This document shows, in pieces, positions 7,544-62,027 of a stretch of DNA of 64,000 bases. Every line of letters begins with the position of its first letter. Position 1 is the first letter of the stretch. Origin of the DNA: an uncultured Muribaculaceae bacterium. GTDB lineage: Bacteria > Bacillota_I > Bacilli_A > RF39 > UBA660. The translations under genes and the position numbers were made by a program. The notes below the pieces were generated by a model. That model had not been told where the DNA came from. It was given only the letters and a program-made list of their open reading frames with translations, and did not search any database. Location of the stretch: the NCBI GenBank assembly GCA_964370475.1, contig CAYJJI010000002.1, positions 27,151 through 91,150 on the forward strand. The letters are read 5' to 3'.

Positions 7544-7597
7544 TTATATTATACTATATTTTTAGATTATTGCATATGTTTTAATGAGGTGATATAC

Positions 7598-7963
7598 ATG
7601 AATGGTAATTTTTATCAAAATCCTACTTTTCCTGGAAACAATAATCCTAAAGGAAATTATGATTTGAATGAAAATGTTGAAGGTAGTGTGATATTAGATA
7701 TGGAGCAAAGTTATATAGAAAATATAATTAGATTAAATAAAGGCAAAAAAGTTAAAGCTTATGTTTCTTTTCCTGATTCTAATACTTGGAAAGATAAAAT
7801 TTTTGAAGGTGTGATAGAAGAATCTGGAAGAGATCATTTAATCATAAGTAATACTAAAAATGGGGAATGGTATTTAATATTAATGGTTTATTTGAATTAT
7901 ATAGAATTTGATGAACGTATTAATTATATTAGTTCTTACAATAATACTTATAATAAAATGTAA
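7598..7963 (+). CDS. gerQ: Spore coat protein GerQ-like
   Basis: ATG at 7598 lies 6 nt after GAGGTG (the track start at 7589 is GTG). The core SYIENIIRLNKGKKVKAYVSF...GRDHLIIS...WYLILMVYLNYIEFDE matches my recollection of the GerQ/YwdL conserved domain. Confidence 0.55.
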   Translation: MNGNFYQNPTFPGNNNPKGNYDLNENVEGSVILDMEQSYIENIIRLNKGKKVKAYVSFPDSNTWKDKIFEGVIEESGRDHLIISNTKNGEWYLILMVYLNYIEFDERINYISSYNNTYNKM

Positions 7964-15290: not shown

Positions 15291-15316
15291 AAAAAAAATA
15301 AGACATAGTCTTATTT
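15291..15316 (-). terminator. Terminator after rpsR
   Basis: - strand AAATAAGAC-(loop)-GTCTTATTT followed by T8. Confidence 0.65.
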
Positions 15317-15529
15317 TACGTATGGGATTAATGCCATAAATCTTGCTCTTTTAATTTGTTCAGCTATGTGTCTTTGATGTTTAGCACATGCTCCAGTCAT
15401 ACGACGAGGCATGATTTTACCTTTTTCATTGATGTATTTAGTAACGATCATTACATCTTTGTAATCAACGCTCTTACCAGCACACATTTGACAAATTTTC
15501 TTCTTTTTACGGAAATATCCTTCTGCCAT
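15311..15529 (-). CDS. rpsR: 30S ribosomal protein S18
   Basis: 72 aa, with ...IDYKDV...LTKYI-like and [18 protein letters not shown] typical of S18. Confidence 0.95.
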
Positions 15530-15544
15530 TGTTATTCCTCCTTT

Positions 15545-15991
15545 TTAAAATGGTAGGTCATCATCGCTAAGTGCAACTTCACTTCCAAAGTCTTCAAAAG
15601 CATCTTTAGAAACGTTTGTTGTTTCGATGTTATTACCTGTTTGATAATCATTAGAGAAATTATTAGAAGTTGCTCCTTTTGCAGATAAAAATGTTACATT
15701 ATCAGCAATAACTTCAGTTACATATCTTTTTGTTCCATCTTGATGATCGTAACTTCTAGTTTGAATTCTTCCATCAACTGCTACTTGGGCACCTTTTTGA
15801 CAATATTTTGCAATATTCTCAGCTTGTTTACGCCATGCTACACAATTAATAAAATCAGCTTCTCTTTCTCCATTTTGATTAGTAAATGTTCTATTAACAG
15901 CTATAGTAAATGTTGTACTGTTCAATCCTGATGCAGTACTTCTCATTTCTGGATCTCTTGTTAATCGACCAATTAAAATTACTTTATTCAT
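15545..15991 (-). CDS. ssb: Single-stranded DNA-binding protein
   Basis: OB-fold N-terminus MNKVILIGRLTRDPE and acidic tip DDDLPF. Sits in the rpsF-ssb-rpsR operon. Confidence 0.95.
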   Translation of the reverse strand: MNKVILIGRLTRDPEMRSTASGLNSTTFTIAVNRTFTNQNGEREADFINCVAWRKQAENIAKYCQKGAQVAVDGRIQTRSYDHQDGTKRYVTEVIADNVTFLSAKGATSNNFSNDYQTGNNIETTNVSKDAFEDFGSEVALSDDDLPF

Positions 15992-15994
15992 TTA

Positions 15995-16285
15995 TTACTC
16001 CTGATCTAATTTGATAATAATATGTCTTAAAATATTTTCATCTAAGTTAGCTTTACGATCAAATTCAGCAATAGCTTCTTTTGTCGCTTCAGTGATTATT
16101 AAATTATAAAATCCATGAATTTCTTTTTTGATTGGATAAGCTAATTTTTTTTCACCTAAGTCTTTAGTTTCAATAACTTTAGAATTGTTATCAGTTAATA
16201 TCTTTGCATATGCAGTAGCTGTTTGTTTAACTGATTCACTTTCTAATGTAGCTTTAACTATAAACATAATTTCATATTTGTTCAT
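15995..16285 (-). CDS. rpsF: 30S ribosomal protein S6
   Basis: MNKYEIMFIV... is a typical S6 N-terminus. First gene of the S6-SSB-S18 operon. Confidence 0.95.
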   Translation of the reverse strand: MNKYEIMFIVKATLESESVKQTATAYAKILTDNNSKVIETKDLGEKKLAYPIKKEIHGFYNLIITEATKEAIAEFDRKANLDENILRHIIIKLDQE

Positions 16286-31831: not shown

Positions 31832-32924
31832 TTATTTATTCTTTAATAATGATTTAATTATATTTATTATGTCTCCATCTAACACTTTATCCGCTTGTGT
31901 TGTTTCAAAGTTCGTTCTGCTATCTTTTACAAGCGTATATGGTTCTAGTACGTAATTTCTTATTTGACTTCCAAAATCTATATTTTTTAATGTTCCTTTA
32001 CTATTTTCAACTTTTTCGTTTTGTTTCATCAATTCTATTTGGTAGAGTTTACTTTTTAATATTTTCATAGCTTGTTCTTTGTTTTTTAACTGACTTCTTT
32101 CGTTTTGACATGTTACTACAGTTCCTGTTGGAAGATGAGTTATTCGAACTGCAGAATCAGTTGTATTTACTGATTGACCACCTGCTCCGCTACTCCTATA
32201 TACATCTATTTTTAGATCAATTTCTTTTATATCGATGTTTATATCTGTTTCGAATTTCGGGATTACTAATACTGAGGCAAATGATGTATGTCTTCTTGAA
32301 TTTGAATCGAACGGAGAAATTCTAACTAATCTATGTACTCCTGATTCGTTTTTTAAATATCCGAAAGCATAATCTCCTTTTACTAAAATAGTTACACTTT
32401 TTATTCCAGCTTCTTCGCCTTTTTGTTCTTCTATTATTTCGTATTTGTAGTTTGATTTGTCGCAAAATCTAATGTACATTCTTTCAAGCATACTTGCCCA
32501 ATCGCAAGATTCTGTACCTCCTGCTCCTGGGTGTATTTCTATATAACAATCTGATTGATCATATTCTTCACTTAGTAATGTTGAAGTTTCTAAATCGCTT
32601 AGTTCTTCATTTATATTTGTTATTTCTAATGTTATCTCTTCTAGTGAGTCTTTATTATTTAAATCTATTAAGCTTATGTACTCCGTTATATATTCAATAG
32701 TTGATTTGATTTCGTTATATTTAGATAACTGCTTTTTTATGTTATTTACTTCTTTAGCTACTGAACTACTTTTTTCGACATCTTGCCATATGTTTGGATC
32801 ATTTAATTGTTCTGTTAATTCATTTAATTTATTTTGTTTTTCTGTGACGTCAAAGAGACCTCCCGATACTATCTAAGGTTTCTATTTGAGTTTTATTTAA
32901 TTGTTGTAATTCATATAGTTCCAT
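31832..32924 (-). CDS. prfB: Peptide chain release factor 2 (requires a programmed +1 frameshift)
   Basis: Frame 0 runs from the ATG at 32924 through MELYELQQLNKTQIETLDSIGRSL to an in-frame TGA. The +1 frame continues DVTEKQNKL... into the track ORF 31832-32491, which carries the SPF and GGQ motifs. Both segment lengths are divisible by 3. Confidence 0.93.
32849..32864 (-). other. prfB: prfB programmed +1 ribosomal frameshift site
   Basis: - strand GGGAGG TCT CTT TGA C: an internal SD-like GGGAGG (32864-32859), then slippery CTT plus the TGA stop with 3' C (32855-32849). Confidence 0.92.
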
Positions 32925-32985
32925 AAGGACTCCTTTTTTGTTTATTATATCATAAATATGTTTTATAATGCATAGCTTTTTTAAT

Positions 32986-33009
32986 AAAAAAAAGTAGCTA
33001 AACTACTTT
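32986..33009 (-). terminator. Terminator after secA
   Basis: - strand AAAGTAG-TTTAG-CTACTTT followed by T5. Confidence 0.5.
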
Positions 33010-37726: not shown

Positions 37727-38611
37727 TTATACTGTTATTTTGTTTATTTCTATATCTTGGTAATAATATTTTAATATTTCCTCATATGTTTTTCCTTCTT
37801 TTGCTAGTCCATTGGCTCCGTATTGACTCATGCCTACTCCATGACCGTATCCGTTAGTTATCAAAGTTACTTGATTATCATTGATATTTATTGTGATATC
37901 TGTTGATCTTAAGTTTAGCAAGTTTCTAAAATCTACGCCTGTGTAATCTATATCATTAATAGTAATTAAATCTATTCGATTATTTTCGTTATAAGTAATT
38001 TTGTTAACTATGAATGAAGTACAATCTATATTTAACATTTTACATATTTCTTCTTTTTTATATGTAATTGTTTCTTGATAGTTTTGATGATTTTCTTCCC
38101 ATGGAGATTTCACTGATTGTATATAAGGTAATTCTTCTCCAAACACTGTAAGGGAATTTTCTGTAGTTCCGTTACTCATTGAAAAGTAAAAAGCAATTAT
38201 GGGATTTTCTTGATATGTAATGATTAAATCTTTTGTATCTTCTATAGCTTTTGATATTTTTTCTTTATAAATTTTGTAATCTTCTCCCCACTTAGATTGC
38301 ATTTGGGAATCGTTTATGAATGCTTGATCTGAGGTTGTACCTGTTAATAGTTGATTGTTAATGTATTTGTAATAAGCATAAGTTCTAGCAGCTACTGCTT
38401 GAGCTTTTAAAGCTTCTATTTCAAATGAAGCTGGCATTTCTGCAGCTAATACTCCTACCAGATAATCTTCTATATATAATTTTTCGTTATTTAATTTTAT
38501 ATATATTTTCTCGTTTGTATATGTGTTTACTTCTTTTTTTTGTTCTTTTTTTATAAGTATACTTATAGGAATTAAAACTATTATTATTAGAATTAGATAT
38601 TTATTTTTCAT
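37727..38611 (-). CDS. spoIID: Stage II sporulation protein D (SpoIID/LytB lytic transglycosylase)
   Basis: LVGVLAAEMPASFEIEALKAQAVAARTYA and GHGVGMSQYGANGLA motifs with an N-terminal anchor. Confidence 0.85.
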   Translation of the reverse strand: MKNKYLILIIIVLIPISILIKKEQKKEVNTYTNEKIYIKLNNEKLYIEDYLVGVLAAEMPASFEIEALKAQAVAARTYAYYKYINNQLLTGTTSDQAFINDSQMQSKWGEDYKIYKEKISKAIEDTKDLIITYQENPIIAFYFSMSNGTTENSLTVFGEELPYIQSVKSPWEENHQNYQETITYKKEEICKMLNIDCTSFIVNKITYNENNRIDLITINDIDYTGVDFRNLLNLRSTDITININDNQVTLITNGYGHGVGMSQYGANGLAKEGKTYEEILKYYYQDIEINKITV

Positions 38612-40344: not shown

Positions 40345-40563
40345 CTATTCAGCTTTATTTTCTTGACTTAATCCATATTTACGGTTGAATTTTTCAACAC
40401 GTCCAGTTTTCTTTAATTTACCTTGTGTACCAGTATAAAATGGATGACATTCGCTACAAACTTCAACTTGAATTTCTTCTTTTGTTGATGTAGTTTCAAA
40501 TGTTGCTCCACAAGCACAGATTACTGTAGATTTTTTAACATCAGGGTGTATTCCTGCTCTCAT
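40345..40563 (-). CDS. rpmE: 50S ribosomal protein L31 (zinc-binding type A)
   Basis: MRAGIHPD..., CxC ... CSEC cysteine pairs, HPFYTG. Confidence 0.95.
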
Positions 40564-40621
40564 CTTTATTCTCCTTCCGCCATATCTAATATGCTTAGAT
40601 ATAGTAATGCATTTCTTAAGT

Positions 40622-40661: not shown

Positions 40662-41186
40662 TTATTTAATTTTGATATGTAACTTATTAAGTATATTTCC
40701 TACTATCGATAATATTTTATCACTATTTTTCATAGCTAATTGTTTCATTATTGCTTTTCCACCTACAGTTATTGTAGATATTATTGCAGTAACTATTATG
40801 GCAGTTATTGTTAAATCAATATTTAACGTTGCTGCATAACTAATTGTAAGTACGGCTGATAAACTTCCACTGACTATTCCACATATATCACCTATTACAT
40901 CATTACAAAATGATGCTATTGTTGCTGAATTTTTTATAAGTGATAAAGCTTCTTTTGATCCTTTTATTTTTTTTGATGCCATGGCATGAAAATTAGCTTC
41001 TTTTGAAGTTAATACTGCTATTCCCACCATATCTGATGTTATTCCTATACAAATTACTAACAATGTTATTATAAGTAATATTGTACTGTTAAAATTGTTG
41101 GCTATAAAGTTTGATATTCCACTAAATATTATCGATAATATAAAAGTCAATAAAAAAACTTTATAGATCCAGTTATTATTTTTCAT
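40662..41186 (-). CDS. Four-TM membrane protein resembling a stand-alone DUF21/CNNM transmembrane module
   Basis: 174 aa. The segment [50 protein letters not shown] parallels the DUF21 pattern SE.A...L......L...G...A..........LS..Q.G. There are no CBS or CorC domains. AAGGAGG RBS. Confidence 0.4.
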
Positions 41187-41229
41187 TAATAACCTCCTTA
41201 TAAAGTAGTATGCGTATGGTATATTATAA

Positions 41230-41680
41230 ATTAATTTTACGGCTTTGGTCGAGTTGAATTTCTCTGTTTTATACCTTCAGTTACCTTCGGGCGATTTCTC
41301 TTTAAATAAACAATTAATCGTTTCCAAATTAATTACTCGATTACCACTTAGTCCGCACTTCAATCTTTATAATATGGACACTCTAGAGGTTTTCCCTGAC
41401 ACTAGGGAGCTATCTTTATTCGCTTTTGCAATGAATGTTTCAATAACATAATATCGTTATATCCCCAATCATCACGCACGACATGTGCTTTTAAATTACA
41501 ATGACGTAGTTTTAGGATTTAAATTATATGCCATTATAACAGCCCTAAAACTTAAAATTATACACTCACCCTAACTTGGGCAGAAAAAGCAAGTACATAA
41601 AGTGTCTTTTGCACAATTAGTAGATTTTTAGCCCTACCTTCCAATAGCTGTTGTGACTAGAATAATGCACCACACCTAAT
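41230..41680 (-). ncRNA. Candidate structured RNA or long 5' leader of unknown class
   Basis: About 450 nt with no credible ORF. My hand count gives about 35 percent G+C, against visibly much lower values in other spacers. G exceeds C on the - strand. A near-consensus promoter lies just upstream. There are several hairpins, two related modules of about 70 nt, and mutually exclusive helices. The boundaries are approximate. Confidence 0.5.
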
Positions 41681-41684
41681 AAAC

Positions 41685-41713
41685 ATAATATCATCTTTAC
41701 ACTATTTTGTCAA
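41685..41713 (-). promoter_or_regulatory. Near-consensus sigma-A promoter driving the candidate RNA
   Basis: - strand TTGACA (41713-41708), exact 17-nt spacer aaatagtgtaaagatga, then TATTAT (41690-41685). Confidence 0.7.
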
Positions 41714-41785
41714 GTGATTTGTTTTTATGTTGCAAGAATATATTAAATTTAATATATTCTATGATTGTTTCTTGATTTTTTGCAT

Positions 41786-41806
41786 AAAAAAAGAGCTTAG
41801 CTCTTA
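41786..41806 (-). terminator. Terminator after the 1162-aa surface protein gene
   Basis: - strand AAGAGC-TAA-GCTCTT followed by T5. It overlaps the TAA stop. Confidence 0.5.
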
Positions 41807-44800
41807 TTTTATTATAAAATGTTTCTCCGATGTCGTTATATATTCTTCTCCGTCATATGCTTCGATAACTATTTTATAAGCTTGAACATCCATAATTGAT
41901 ACGTTCAGATTTAGGTCTTGATTACCAATCAATAGTTGATATTTATTTTCTTCTAACGTTCCTATTAAAGGTGCATCTATATAATCATTCAGATTTAAAA
42001 GCGTGTAATCTTGATTTAAAGCATTTAATTCTGTCTTTTTATATAATGATATTTTAAGATTTGGGTTTGTAGCACCGGTAAGCACGGTATTCAAATCAAT
42101 TATTGATGTTAATGTATCCTTATAAATAATAGGATCATTATTCATTGAAGCTTTAAAGTAGATATTTTTTGCTTCTGTACTGTTATCAACTAGCAATGGC
42201 ACTTCTTTAGTAGCAATATATTCTGTTTGCTTGTTATTGTAAGAAATGAAACTGTCAATTTCGACTATGTAGTTTCCTATATCTAGGAAACTATCTCCTT
42301 TATAACCTTGTATTTCTAAAGTTGTATCTATTCCTAGTATTCCAGTATTTGAATTTATTGTGACTAATCCATTTTGATCTGGGTAGTATGTATTACCATT
42401 CATTTTGAATGCCAAATTGTTTAAGTCACTTCTAGGTACTGATGAACCGTCTTCTTTTCTTAAGCTAATATTTAGTATTATATCTTGTTCTTCTATATAT
42501 GTATCATATATTGGTAATCCTAACGCTTGTTTATAAATTACTCCAGTATCAATATTTATCGTAGCTATTGAATCTGATTTATATTTCAAATACGCTTGGG
42601 TAGTTGTAGTATTAAAGAACAATGATGCTTCATTATTTTTAAATAGTGTGAATGGTATTAATGATCCAGCAACTGTATTTCTTATTATTGTTCCTGAATT
42701 ATCTTCTGCTGTTATCCACATATTATAAGAACTTATATCATCGTTAATTATAGAATTTTCAAATATTACCGTAACAGTGAAATTTTCTTTTATATCGGTT
42801 CCGTTACTATAATCACTTTCTGTAAAATATGAGTTAACTGTACCTATTAGATTGAAATTTTTAAATGATATTTTTGATGATGATATGCTATTTTCGATTT
42901 TGTAATCATATTTATTACCTGTTATGTTATCAGTTAATATTATTACTGTTCCGCTTGGTACCGTTCTATCAAAAGTTAAATAATGATTTATTTCATCTAT
43001 TTGATAGTGTGGTACATTATAAATATAATTTGCTGTTATTGATGAATTAGATGTTATATTTATTGTATCATCACTATTAAACATATCATTTTTTCCTGCT
43101 TTGATATAGTTCGTATGGTATCCATCAAATGTTATTATATCACTGTTTAAATAAGCTATATTCCCGCTTTTGTCTTCTATTTTAGCATATAAGATGTTTT
43201 CACCTACTGGTGTAAGACTGAAAGTTCCGTCATACTCTGACCAATTTGCTTCATTTAATTTATTTAAGCTATCTTCGCTCATTATTTCATCACTTACTAA
43301 GTAACTTATTTCATTTTCTTCAGAGTTTTCGTTTGATGTTATCGTTATGTTGTTATTTGATTTTAATAGTATTTCAGATACATCTGTTCTTAAATCAGTC
43401 CAAGAGTTATCGGCGAATGAAATAGTTCCGCTAGGTAATGTTTTATCTATATTTATTACATCAGAATTTATATATCTTACTTGTTGGTTATAGTCTGTTA
43501 ATTTTACATACACTATATATTGACCTTCTTTATCTAAAACGACTGGTCCTTCATAACTTAACCAAGTTATATTTACTATTTCTTCTTCTGTTAATGCAAT
43601 GTTATCATTTTTTATGTAGTATTCTACTTTAGATAGCGAATAGATTGGAGCTGTCGAAGTAACAGCTATATTTAAATTTTGATTGTAATATTTATTTTCT
43701 AATATATATGAAGTATTATTCCAGTAGTTTTCTCCAGCTCTTATATCTATCAAGTTTATTTCATCAATAAAATATAATTCAGGTAAATTTAAATCGTTAT
43801 ATATCCATTTGTTGTTTATTGGATCTTCGTGGAAGTTTGTATAATTTAGTGCATTTAACGATTCATTTGAGTATAGAGTATTTGAATCTATAGTATTTAC
43901 TATTGGATTATTAGATATATTTTGATTGTAAACATTTTCTAGTATAACTTTTTCATTTTCTACTATAAATTCTGAATTAGAGCTATTAATGGTATTTTTT
44001 ATTACGACATTATCGTTAGTTATTCTTCTTGATATTCCATATTTTTCTATGGCGTTTAGCGAACCACTATTATATACATTTGTTATTTCTGTAGGTCCTG
44101 TTATATTTCCAACTATACCAGTTGCTTTGTATTCAGCGTTTACTGTTCCACTATTGTATGAATTTAATATTTTTAAGTTTCCTGTTGAATTATTTATTAA
44201 CCCTGATGAACTACTTGTATTGTATATATTAGTATTGTTTACAAAGTTAGTTATTTCTGTGTTATTAGAGTTAGTTATTAAACCTGATGAACTAGAAAGA
44301 TTATATACTACTTCGTATTCTAAGTTAATTAGTGATATATTTCTAATTATTTCTTCAGATCCAATACTTATTACTACTTCGTTAATTGGTGTAGTTCCTA
44401 AATCAACTTTAAATTCTCCTAACTCTATAGCTAATCCATTTATGGTTAAATTATAGTTAATATTATTAGCATCATTAACTAAGTAGTTACCTTTAATACT
44501 TGAAGATATAATTTCTTTATTATCTACTGCATCGGTTAATTTTAAATTATTTATAAATAATCCTGTTGAAGTATGGATATCATTGAATTTTGTAGATGTT
44601 TTTTCTACAACTGTTTGTTTTCCTACTACTAGTCCGCTTAAGTAAGTATCACTTATCTTAAAATCATTAGAGTTAACTGCTAATCCTGCATTATTATTTC
44701 CTCCATATATTAACATGTTTTCTATATAAGTATTTTTAAATGTTCCTGATATATTTTTGAATAATGCTAAATTATCTTCACTCTCACTTGTTACATACAT

Positions 44801-45292
44801 TCCATATATTGAAAAGAAATTTCCGTCAAAGTTTCCTTTAAAATCTTCAATCATATTGATTTTGTTGATTGACTTTTCTGATTGTTCTAAGTAATTTTTA
44901 TCATTATAGATTTGTGTAGTATATTCTTTTATATAGTACTCTGTATTAGATGAAACATATCTTAATACTTCATCGTATACAAATATACCATCATTTATAA
45001 TTATGTCATTACCTAATTTAAAGTATGTATCTTTATAATCTGTAGATTTTAATTGTTCTGCAAAATAAGCAAATTCGCTTCCGTCAACAATTATATAAGG
45101 ATCTTCTTTAGTACCTGTTCCTGATGAGTATGAAGAAGCAATTGTACCATCCCAGATAGTTAGGCTCATTGATTCGTTTATCCCATTATAAAAACGCGAT
45201 AGTGTTGGAACTGCTACCGTTAATGTAAGTGTTAACATTATTAACGCAAATACTATATAAATTTTAGGTATTTTTTTTATAATGTTGTACAT
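41804..45292 (-). CDS. Giant N-terminally anchored surface protein with GLUG-like/beta-helix repeats and Ig-like modules
   Basis: 1162 aa with the N-terminal TM KIYIVFALIMLTLTLTVAVP. Repeated [AST]GL[IVF]xN units occur (AGLAVNS, SGLVVGK, SSGLITNS, SSGLINNS, TGIVGNI). One module, IDKTLPSG...EDKSGN, matches the pilin-like proteins. There is no LPXTG motif. Confidence 0.75.
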   Translation of the reverse strand: MYNIIKKIPKIYIVFALIMLTLTLTVAVPTLSRFYNGINESMSLTIWDGTIASSYSSGTGTKEDPYIIVDGSEFAYFAEQLKSTDYKDTYFKLGNDIIINDGIFVYDEVLRYVSSNTEYYIKEYTTQIYNDKNYLEQSEKSINKINMIEDFKGNFDGNFFSIYGMYVTSESEDNLALFKNISGTFKNTYIENMLIYGGNNNAGLAVNSNDFKISDTYLSGLVVGKQTVVEKTSTKFNDIHTSTGLFINNLKLTDAVDNKEIISSSIKGNYLVNDANNINYNLTINGLAIELGEFKVDLGTTPINEVVISIGSEEIIRNISLINLEYEVVYNLSSSSGLITNSNNTEITNFVNNTNIYNTSSSSGLINNSTGNLKILNSYNSGTVNAEYKATGIVGNITGPTEITNVYNSGSLNAIEKYGISRRITNDNVVIKNTINSSNSEFIVENEKVILENVYNQNISNNPIVNTIDSNTLYSNESLNALNYTNFHEDPINNKWIYNDLNLPELYFIDEINLIDIRAGENYWNNTSYILENKYYNQNLNIAVTSTAPIYSLSKVEYYIKNDNIALTEEEIVNITWLSYEGPVVLDKEGQYIVYVKLTDYNQQVRYINSDVINIDKTLPSGTISFADNSWTDLRTDVSEILLKSNNNITITSNENSEENEISYLVSDEIMSEDSLNKLNEANWSEYDGTFSLTPVGENILYAKIEDKSGNIAYLNSDIITFDGYHTNYIKAGKNDMFNSDDTINITSNSSITANYIYNVPHYQIDEINHYLTFDRTVPSGTVIILTDNITGNKYDYKIENSISSSKISFKNFNLIGTVNSYFTESDYSNGTDIKENFTVTVIFENSIINDDISSYNMWITAEDNSGTIIRNTVAGSLIPFTLFKNNEASLFFNTTTTQAYLKYKSDSIATINIDTGVIYKQALGLPIYDTYIEEQDIILNISLRKEDGSSVPRSDLNNLAFKMNGNTYYPDQNGLVTINSNTGILGIDTTLEIQGYKGDSFLDIGNYIVEIDSFISYNNKQTEYIATKEVPLLVDNSTEAKNIYFKASMNNDPIIYKDTLTSIIDLNTVLTGATNPNLKISLYKKTELNALNQDYTLLNLNDYIDAPLIGTLEENKYQLLIGNQDLNLNVSIMDVQAYKIVIEAYDGEEYITTSEKHFIIK

Positions 45293-60774: not shown

Positions 60775-61698
60775 CTACACCTTCTTTTTCATATATTTAT
60801 TAATAATTGAGTTTTGAGCTACTGCAAATAAATTTGTTGCAATCCAATACAGCGCTATTGCTGTTGGTAAACTGAATGATGCTAGTGATATTGTTACTAA
60901 CATAATTTTCATCATGAAATTCATTTGTGTTTGCATTTCATCAGTAGTTTGAGAACTCATTGTATTTTTAAATGATAAGTATGTACTTAGAATGATTAAT
61001 ACTATTAATGCTATATAAATATAATTTCCATCGCTTATTCCAACCCATGGAGTTGTTCCCAACTTTAATCCAAGGAAGAATTCTCCTTCAAAAATTGCTG
61101 GTACTCTATTGATTGCTTCTAAGAATGCAAAAAATACTGGTAATTGAATGAATGCTACTAAGCAACCTGAAACTGGATTGATATTATATTTTTTATAAAT
61201 CATCATAGTTTCTTGACTTTTCATCATCATTGAATCTTTATCTTGTTTGTCTTTATATTTTTTTTCTAATGCTTTTATCTCAGGATTAGCTTTTTTCATA
61301 TTTTCTGATTGCATTTGAGATTTTCTTGTTAATGGCAGCATTGCTAATCTTATTATTATACCAATTAGTATAACTGAAATACCCATATTATTAACTAAAT
61401 ATCCTAGTTGTAATATAATGTACGCTAATGGTTTTACAAAGATAGTATCCCATAAACCTTCATATCCATTACTTGTAATAGTAAATTCTTCACATGTAGG
61501 AACTTTATTAATAATTTCTACTTTATGTTCTTCATATAAATTTAAAGTATCTTTATCTGATGGTTGACATAAAATATTTGCTGTTAATGTTTGCCCCGTA
61601 TTTTCATTGATAACATTTTTATTATCATCTTTAACATATTCAGTACAACCAGTTGTTAATAATATTATAGATAATAATATTAATATTTTCTTTTTCAT
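60775..61698 (-). CDS. yidC: Membrane protein insertase YidC (lipoprotein type, SpoIIIJ/YqjG-like)
   Basis: Lipobox LLTTGC, 5 TM segments, and a basic C-terminus. Confidence 0.92.
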   Translation of the reverse strand: MKKKILILLSIILLTTGCTEYVKDDNKNVINENTGQTLTANILCQPSDKDTLNLYEEHKVEIINKVPTCEEFTITSNGYEGLWDTIFVKPLAYIILQLGYLVNNMGISVILIGIIIRLAMLPLTRKSQMQSENMKKANPEIKALEKKYKDKQDKDSMMMKSQETMMIYKKYNINPVSGCLVAFIQLPVFFAFLEAINRVPAIFEGEFFLGLKLGTTPWVGISDGNYIYIALIVLIILSTYLSFKNTMSSQTTDEMQTQMNFMMKIMLVTISLASFSLPTAIALYWIATNLFAVAQNSIINKYMKKKV

Positions 61699-62027
61699 TT
61701 ATTCTCCTTATTTGCAATTAATGATATTAATTTATCTTCTAGTTTAGAATATTCTTTATTTACTGATTTCATTCTAATCATTATCACATAATCAAAATTA
61801 TTAGCAAATTGATTTTTATATTCATCTAAAATACTTTTTACTTGTCTTTTTAATTTATTTCTTACTACTGCGTTACCTGATTTTGTACTTATCGTAATTC
61901 CATATAGTGGAACTATTTCTTTTTTAGGAAACCTATATATAATAAAATAATCATTTTTATTGTATTTTCCTTTTTTTATTATTTTGGTAAATTCAGTACT
62001 TTTTTTAATGATTTCTACTTTTTTCAT
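61695..62027 (-). CDS. rnpA: Ribonuclease P protein component
   Basis: 110 aa, basic, with an RNR-like motif region (AVVRNKLKRQVK). Sits between rpmH and yidC. Confidence 0.92.
   Translation of the reverse strand: MKKVEIIKKSTEFTKIIKKGKYNKNDYFIIYRFPKKEIVPLYGITISTKSGNAVVRNKLKRQVKSILDEYKNQFANNFDYVIMIRMKSVNKEYSKLEDKLISLIANKENK

Follow-up and report, generated by a model that had tools for sequence, protein, structure and literature searches.

OLE RNAs, named for being ornate, large and extremophilic, rank among the largest non-coding RNAs of bacteria that await an assigned biochemical function, which gives each member of the family some comparative value. Full-length forms, such as those of Halalkalibacterium halodurans and Clostridium acetobutylicum, are about 577-630 nt long. 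In these RNAs, a stem of ~12 bp formed by P3 and P3.1 encloses P4-P9 and has been proposed to span the membrane (PMC12265935). The A-rich P4 loop forms a dimerisation centre in cryo-EM models (PMC12265935), and the palindromic loop of P9 makes an intermolecular kissing contact, bridge B3, in the cryo-EM dimer (PMC12286853). The OapB recognition motif consists of a GNRA tetraloop together with one bulged nucleotide in P13 (PMC7936274), while the OapC k-turn at J4a/5-P5-J5/6 has been defined experimentally (PMC9723947, PMC12054373). A membrane-localised ribonucleoprotein and stress-tolerance phenotypes are known only for H. halodurans (PMC12265935, PMC10898510).

The protein partner OapA, short for OLE-associated protein A, is recognised by a set of four transmembrane helices, basic residues clustered on the cytoplasmic side, a DxxxD motif, the lack of the CNNM proline and weak similarity to CNNM proteins (PMC11332333, PMC12265935). 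Sub-threshold similarity to CNNM/DUF21 is how the literature describes OapA (PMC11332333). The family is accepted to include reduced OLE variants (PMC11332333). Fernando and Breaker (2024) described variant 1, in which P7, P8 and P9 are shortened and which is common in TANB77, and variant 2, in which P7 and P8 are wholly absent and which is common in the RF39 clade; both are found mainly in uncultured gut Bacillota (PMC11332333).

The locus considered here lies in a 64,000-nt stretch of DNA (the window). It is almost certainly an ole gene, encoding a folded, reduced-size member of the OLE RNA family that has oapA as its partner. This identification draws on the family match, the canonical model pairs, covariation, the signature sequence blocks, an OapA-like gene downstream, synteny and a conserved promoter. 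The gene fills most of a spacer of 617 nt (41187-41803), the longest ORF-free stretch in the window, which is flanked by a 1162-codon gene (41804-45292, - strand) and a 174-codon gene (40662-41186, - strand). The elements of the locus, in the direction of transcription, are as follows.

41785-41805, - strand: terminator of intrinsic type that ends the upstream 1162-aa gene, with stem-loop AAGAGCUAAGCUCUU and then a U-run.
41685-41713, - strand: ole promoter, sigma-70-type, the best site in the region with 11 of 12 consensus positions.
41200-41689, - strand: ole, reduced form of ~465-490 nt, placed by the RF01071 match.
41193-41199, - strand: oapA ribosome-binding site AAGGAGG, 6 nt before the ATG.
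40662-41186, - strand: oapA, 174 aa, assigned by motif, topology and synteny.

A first-pass annotation, made from the sequence alone, had drawn attention to this spacer as GC-enriched, with more G than C on the - strand. Both observations hold: G+C amounts to 34.8% in 41241-41680 compared with 27.0% window-wide and 19-27% in the other ORF-free gaps above 150 nt on a crude ORF map, and the - strand of this interval contains 92 G and 61 C. The description of the spacer as the only long non-coding stretch in the window also stands. A 517-nt gap at 32492-33008 was considered as a second such stretch and rejected; it is the N-terminal part of prfB, is coding and is set apart by the programmed +1 frameshift of that gene. 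The ole region was likewise correctly described as ORF-free. A 68-codon ORF with a TTG start is present on the + strand (41245-41451), but this region contains 2-9 stops per frame in all seven relatives introduced below, so the ORF is interrupted in every frame of every relative and the region is effectively ORF-free.

An Infernal scan of the whole window against Rfam 15, run at the curated thresholds, places a match to RF01071 (OLE RNA) at 41200-41689 on the - strand, with a score of 231.5 bits and E = 5e-64, where the gathering score of the family is 50 bits. The alignment is untruncated and spans model positions 1-616. It shows 114 model pairs, of which 105 have both residues present and 97 of these 105 are canonical. 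The first-pass annotation was right in proposing a structured non-coding RNA on the - strand, which is borne out by this match and by covariation among close relatives. It was wrong in treating the RNA as unclassified and a candidate for a novel family; OLE was on its own list of families to check.

The same annotation had pointed to loose string similarities to the M-box and the T-box, and these are the sole support for reading the region as a diverged M-box or T-box, or as some other cis-regulatory RNA already known. Neither M-box (RF00380) nor T-box (RF00230) was found at the gathering threshold in the whole window, or in a permissive cmscan (E <= 10) of the 751 nt at 41100-41850. Apart from OLE, that scan returned only noise (mycoplasma_FSE, plant miRNA families and STnc410), which refutes this reading and leaves it a vanishingly small probability.

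Seven relatives share the architecture of the window's RNA and are referred to together with it as the short clade (L001-L003, L081, L083, L090 and L114). L001 comes from a rabbit-gut MAG and L002 from a sheep-rumen MAG; L003 is also genome-derived, and the other four are metagenomic loci. The clade was picked by a motif-distance classification of 160 loci, used for this purpose only, which failed to recover many genuine OLE RNAs whose core motifs vary. Most of the relatives were then confirmed by cmscan; the placement of L083 and L090 is based only on motif spacing and alignment. In the seven relatives, 89-108 nt separate the P6 loop from the 3' side of P9; the corresponding distance is 155 nt in three other loci and >170 nt in the remaining measurable loci. 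A P7/P8 deletion matching that of the window is seen in L001-L003, L081 and L114.

The conserved core of ole runs from GUGGUGCA (41673) to ACCAU (41216). Its helices and conserved blocks can be placed from the family model and the short-clade alignment, in 5' to 3' order of the RNA.

41654-41673, - strand: 5' conserved block GUGGUGCAUUAUUCUAGUCA, corresponding to model positions 17-36.
41644-41655, - strand: 5' strands of P3.1 (CACAA) and P3 (AGCUAU), pairing with 41413-41400.
41619-41638, - strand: P4 hairpin with the A-rich loop CUAAAAAU, 100% paired, with 2 compensatory pairs.
41557-41602, - strand: P5/P5.1 hairpin with loop GCCCA, 19 pairs, 6 of them double-changed, 91% paired.
41508-41552, - strand: P6/P6.1 hairpin with loop AAUGGCAU, from model and clade pairing, containing GUUUUAGGG/UCCUAAAAC.
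41483-41507, - strand: linker at the P7/P8 site, where 15 nt replace 80 model positions (44 reduced to 7 and 36 reduced to 8).
41419-41482, - strand: truncated P9, from the model alignment, with the distal arm reduced from 37 to 3 nt.
41400-41413, - strand: 3' strands of P3 (AUAGCU) and P3.1 (UAGUG), from the clade alignment.
41387-41397, - strand: P10 hairpin AGG-GAAAA-CCU, then CUAGAGUGU; GGGAAAACCUCUAG is invariant.
41221-41375, - strand: P12-P15, the 3' multi-helix domain, from model and clade helices, including GACCAAAGCCGUAAAAUU.
41354-41335, - strand: near-invariant core GGACUAAGUGGUAAUCGAGU, in which CGAGU pairs long-range with ACUCG.
41333-41313, - strand: P13 with GAAA tetraloop and bulged U, AUUAA-U-UUG[GAAA]CGAUUAAU, an OapB-type site.
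41292-41273, - strand: P14.1 with a GUAA loop that is kept in the clade.

The window's RNA holds all the signature blocks of full-length OLE, namely GUGGUGCA..CUAGUCA, CUAAAAAU, GCCCA, AAUGGCAU, UGCAAAAG, GGAAAAC, GGACUAAGUGGUAAUC and GACC.AAGCCGYAAA (as GACC.AAGCCGUAAAAUU). Among the eight sequences of the short clade, the blocks GUGGUGCA..CUAGUC, CUAAAAAU, GCCCA, AAUGGCAU, UGCAAAAG, GGAAAAC, GGACUAAGUGG and AAGCCGUAAAAUU show at most one substitution, in one sequence. Within the 5' block, GUGGUGCAUUAUUCUAGUC is invariant and the final A differs in one sequence. P1 and P2 lie outside the Rfam model. Complementarity between invariant strands suggests that P1 may form between the 5' GUGGU and the 3' ACCAU (41220-41216), and P2 between UCUAG and CUAGA (41387-41383). 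P3 and P3.1 are also absent from the Rfam model and were added from their description in the literature and from complementarity; they comprise 6 + 5 bp, with double changes at 6 of the 11 pairs across the clade.

The helix that the first-pass annotation had seen between GUUUUAGGG and UCCUAAAAC is real and corresponds to P6 of the family model. Wherever they were checked, the strings it quoted lie where it had put them, and its other motifs fall within the intervals it gave. Several of its structural readings did not survive comparison with the family. The K-turn-like GUGAUGA (41475-41469) forms one side of the regular P9 helix. A hairpin proposed at CCCUAGUGUCAGGG conflicts with the conserved pairings of P3.1 and P10, and the relatives do not conserve its 5' arm. 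The idea of two related modules is not distinguishable from chance, with a local alignment score of 17 compared with 14.0 +/- 2.4 for shuffled sequences and 138 of 1000 shuffles reaching 17.

Covariation across homologous spacers, a test that had been suggested at the outset, was counted on the eight-sequence alignment with Rfam-derived pairs plus P3/P3.1. Pairing is present in 89.7% of pair cells, compared with 39-45% in controls where the partner strand was slid. Compensated pairs, with changes on both sides, number 31, against 1-8 in these controls, and 0 of 500 shuffles match the observed values on any of five measures. The P9 helix alone contributes double changes at 6 of 10 pairs. The folding energy of the single sequence is unremarkable (MFE z = -1.03), a value that is uninformative for this AT-rich RNA. 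The evidence for structure is thus the family model and covariation, not thermodynamics.

The assignment of these helices bears directly on the first-pass proposal that the region is a novel riboswitch-like or attenuator leader controlling the DUF21-like gene in cis, through an antiterminator (UAAUCG/CGAUUA) and a mutually exclusive terminator (AAUUAAU/AUUAAUU followed by a U-run). The RNA does lie directly upstream of a membrane-protein gene with which it is apparently co-transcribed, and both alternative pairings exist in the window sequence. However, the whole region is accounted for by a known trans-acting RNA family. The AAUUAAU/AUUAAUU pairing is a true helix, but as the conserved P13 with its GNRA loop, covarying as such, and not as the stem of a terminator. 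UAAUCG belongs to the near-invariant core GGACUAAGUGGUAAUCGAGU, which is engaged in the long-range pairing listed above. What had looked like the U-run of the terminator, GUUUAUUU, makes up the 5' strand of P14 and then leads into the conserved UUUAAAG junction, and no - strand terminator is called inside the RNA. Regulation in cis of this kind is highly improbable, and the region is better read as an OLE RNA.

Transcription of ole appears to be independent of the upstream gene. The terminator of the latter has a stem of 6 pairs (41805-41791) followed by TTTTTAT, and just past it comes the promoter, with TTGACA (41713-41708), a spacing of 17 nt, TATTAT (41690-41685) and TG at 41693-41692. Promoter-like sites overall are not enriched in the region (11 found and 13 expected). 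In all eight short-clade loci the TTGAC of the -35 box is invariant and in the same register, and the extended -10 element, with the consensus TGATATAAT, is largely conserved, its distance from GUGGUGCA being unchanged. This conservation at one position argues for a dedicated ole promoter, as had been proposed from the near-consensus match and the preceding terminator. Transcription would start at this sigma-70-type promoter, with a predicted start site near 41677. The arrangement differs from that in H. halodurans, where ole is described as belonging to a long polycistronic cluster (PMC12265935).

At the other end of the RNA, no - strand terminator was detected between 41690 and 41186, and hence none between ole and oapA. 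The start of oapA, with its ribosome-binding site, lies ~30 nt past the conserved 3' end of the RNA (ACCAU, 41216). With this spacing and no intervening terminator, the simplest reading is that ole and oapA are co-transcribed, the transcript probably continuing into oapA.

The first-pass annotation had placed the RNA just before a gene for a DUF21-like membrane protein. The position is right, and the gene is oapA. Its product matches the CNNM/DUF21 family PF01595 over residues 38-170 with 23.1 bits, below the Pfam cut-off of 28.4. By motif, topology and synteny, the 174-aa protein is identified as an OapA orthologue and not a DUF21 transporter proper. Its DxxxD motif (FCNDVIGD, with DVIGD at residues 96-100) is invariant in 15 homologues, including some from Bacillus-group species. 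There are about four hydrophobic segments, at residues ~6-30, 27-61, 97-119 and 118-147 in our grouping of overlapping stretches, a cluster of K and R at residues 62-85 and no prolines. With the MpfA/CorB/CNNM (DUF21) Mg2+ transporters, OapA shares only the weak, sub-threshold PF01595 match; it differs from them in having no CBS or CorC domains, in the DxxxD motif and in the lack of proline. A sequence search of the PDB gave nothing at E <= 1, and no NCBIfam model matched the protein. A search of public genomes with the window's OapA was used to assess synteny: 40 of the loci returned were scanned, and in 38 of these 40 an OLE match lies upstream of the gene for the OapA homologue, most often directly adjacent.

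The host also fits the known range of OLE RNAs, which is Bacillota, usually anaerobes or extremophiles. The closest loci belong to MAGs labelled 'uncultured Bacilli', of rabbit-gut and sheep-rumen origin, and the window encodes GerQ and SpoIID-domain proteins, which are typical of Bacillota, so a Bacillota-related host is indicated. Neither OapB (KOW) nor OapC (L7Ae/YbxF) was found among ten small ORFs of the window that were scanned (S18, S6, SSB, CspA-like, RnpA, GerQ, DUF1292, DUF1146 and two unknowns); linkage of these genes to ole is not expected.

The window's RNA and full-length OLE have in common P3/P3.1, P4, P5/P5.1, P6/P6.1, the base of P9, P10 and P12-P15, GNRA loops on P13 and P14.1, the bulged nucleotide of P13, an oapA gene directly downstream and a Bacillota-related host. 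The OapB-type motif in P13 is present, as judged at the level of the RNA. The sequences of the dimer-contact loops of P4, P5.1 and P6.1 are invariant in the clade, GCCCA of P5/P5.1 being the kissing-loop partner of P6.1 in the OLE architecture.

The differences are mostly losses. At ~490 nt, the window's RNA is ~110-125 nt shorter than typical, and most relatives have 545-630 nt and 355-558 bits compared with 490 nt and 231 bits here. Full-length OLE has P7, P8, P11, the distal part of P9 and its palindromic kissing loop, whereas the window's copy has none of these. P9 retains its base and the conserved GGAU/UGAAA internal loop and lacks the distal arm with the GGCC-type palindrome; no self-complementary tetranucleotide recurs in apical P9 across the aligned clade. 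The P11 hairpin of the model is deleted. The k-turn consensus of full-length OLE at J4a/5, CGAUGAAG, is degenerate; the window has AAAAGACAC at this site, and six of the seven relatives mostly have AUGAUAC. The OapC k-turn was looked for at J4a/5 with J5/6 or J6/7, and no canonical 3-nt-bulge k-turn at J4a/5 could be fitted by manual inspection. The window's RNA therefore falls outside the full-length class (~600 nt, with P7, P8, long P9 and P11), a result that excludes this class only.

Such losses, together with a bit score that is low for the family, could suggest a decaying, non-functional OLE remnant in a reduced genome, or even a decayed protein-coding gene. This is scarcely credible for several reasons. 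All eight loci keep this reduced architecture, with neighbouring OapA proteins that share only about 53-72% identity with that of the window. The core is near-invariant in sequence, compensation is seen at 31 pairs and the promoter has been conserved; the deletions remove whole peripheral hairpins cleanly; the oapA frame is intact, with its motifs conserved; and there is no conserved reading frame on the + strand. Reduced natural OLE variants are, moreover, documented (PMC11332333). The losses are better understood as those of a pared-down but maintained OLE RNA.

Compared with the published variants, the absence of P7 and P8 in the short clade fits the definition of variant 2, for which the published text is silent on distal P9 and P11. 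The shortened P9 is a feature shared with variant 1, and the OapB-type P13 site, often missing in variant 1, is kept in the window. The gut and rumen origin of the closest relatives resembles the habitat of the uncultured bacteria that carry the variants. The sporulation-type genes for GerQ and SpoIID-domain proteins are unlike the description of the reduced-genome RF39 and TANB77 organisms. L004 and L014, of 545-548 nt, are intermediate: their P7 and P8 are short, P9 is truncated and P11 is missing; they resemble variant 1 and are distinct from the short clade. The locus thus represents a known RNA family in a reduced form that was described previously, and it is not categorically new: a routine scan against Rfam is enough to annotate it, and variants shortened by the absence of P7 and P8 have been published.

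It is possible, if rather doubtful, that the window and its seven relatives constitute a distinct 'minimal' OLE subclass of ~465-490 nt, in which P7, P8 and P11 are missing, as is the entire distal P9 arch that carries the intermolecular kissing loop, and in which the OapB-type site in P13 and a conserved promoter of its own are kept. This clade may be more reduced than published variant 2.

The likely function can be proposed by analogy with what has been learned in H. halodurans and in two species of Clostridium (PMC12265935, PMC10898510, PMC12286853), from which RNA-protein binding, membrane localisation, dimerisation and a role in stress are all extrapolated. The RNA itself folds into the conserved OLE architecture, with P3 through P6, P9 in truncated form, P10 and P12-P15. 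As in H. halodurans, the four-helix membrane protein OapA would bind the RNA, and the two would form a membrane-anchored ribonucleoprotein, in which P3/P3.1 may span the bilayer. Dimerisation would involve the P4 and P5.1/P6.1 loops, joined in full-length forms by the P9 loops. By the same comparison with H. halodurans, the complex could make the cell more tolerant of cold, of short-chain alcohols and excess Mg2+, and of poor carbon sources.

The value of this locus is modest, as a clean natural example of a pared-down OLE RNA. The interest of a further-minimised subclass would be incremental and would lie in helping to define the essential core of OLE. If it is real, it would show naturally which parts of the RNA are dispensable, including one of the four dimer contacts, and would give structural studies of the unresolved 3' domain a more compact RNA to work with. 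An OLE RNA that has dispensed with P7, P8, P11 and the P9 arch while keeping near-invariant sequence cores, P3/P3.1, the P13 site and its promoter could help to delimit the essential core of the OLE ribonucleoprotein.

Downstream of ole, the OLE RNA gene, the order oapA-rpmE-ATP-grasp-rpiB is syntenic between the window and L001, the closest relative among the public loci encoding OapA homologues. By contrast, the 3-kb flank upstream in L001 shows no counterpart of the gene that precedes ole in the window. No Pfam family was found for the product of this window gene, and its sole match, weak and sub-threshold, places an OmpL47-type beta-barrel domain (NCBIfam) at residues 678-714. The ribosomal-protein leader directly 5' of rpmE (40345-40563; product Pfam Ribosomal_L31, 104 bits) barely exceeds its gathering score (34.3 versus 33.3 bits).

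41804-45292, - strand: gene for a 1162-aa protein, upstream of ole
40649-40622: promoter-like site TTGCTA-16-TATAAT, near the leader and rpmE
40571-40604, - strand: L31-Firmicutes ribosomal-protein leader (RF03156)

In two of the public loci, the OLE RNA is intermediate in size, at 545-548 nt, and scores 382-396 bits. P7 and P8 are short, P11 is absent, and P9 is truncated, with 1-4 nt standing in place of 46-50 model positions. These RNAs resemble the published reduced class "variant 1" (Fernando and Breaker 2024) and stand apart from the window's clade.

L004:1253-1797: intermediate OLE RNA
L014:2363-2910: intermediate OLE RNA

Only 2 of the 40 loci scanned, L006 and L015, gave no RF01071 match in the scanned DNA. 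The OLE gene is not directly adjacent to the OapA homologue at L010, L018, and L028; there it sits 0.4-1.8 kb upstream of the homologue. Several contigs among loci of these kinds bear Muribaculaceae or Bacteroidaceae labels, which probably reflect mis-binning.

3001-3471 in L006 and L015: OapA homologue

An apparent 517-nt non-coding gap is an artefact of simple ORF listing and belongs to the prfB coding sequence. Translation in frame 0 gives MELYELQQLNKTQIETLDSIGRSL before a stop codon, and the +1 frame (GGLFDVTEKQ...) runs on into a 219-codon ORF. The presence of RF2 suggests that UGA is read as a stop in this organism.

31832 to ~32925, - strand: prfB (release factor 2), classical programmed +1 frameshift

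Two sporulation-type genes, along with the rpsF-ssb-rpsR cluster and rnpA, point to a spore-forming, low-GC (27% in the window) member of the Bacillota as the likely host.

7589-7963, + strand: GerQ spore-coat gene
37727-38611, - strand: SpoIID-domain gene
61695-62027, - strand: rnpA
15311-16285, - strand: rpsF-ssb-rpsR cluster

A spore-forming host of this kind would differ from RF39 and TANB77 organisms with reduced genomes, the main reported hosts of short OLE variants.
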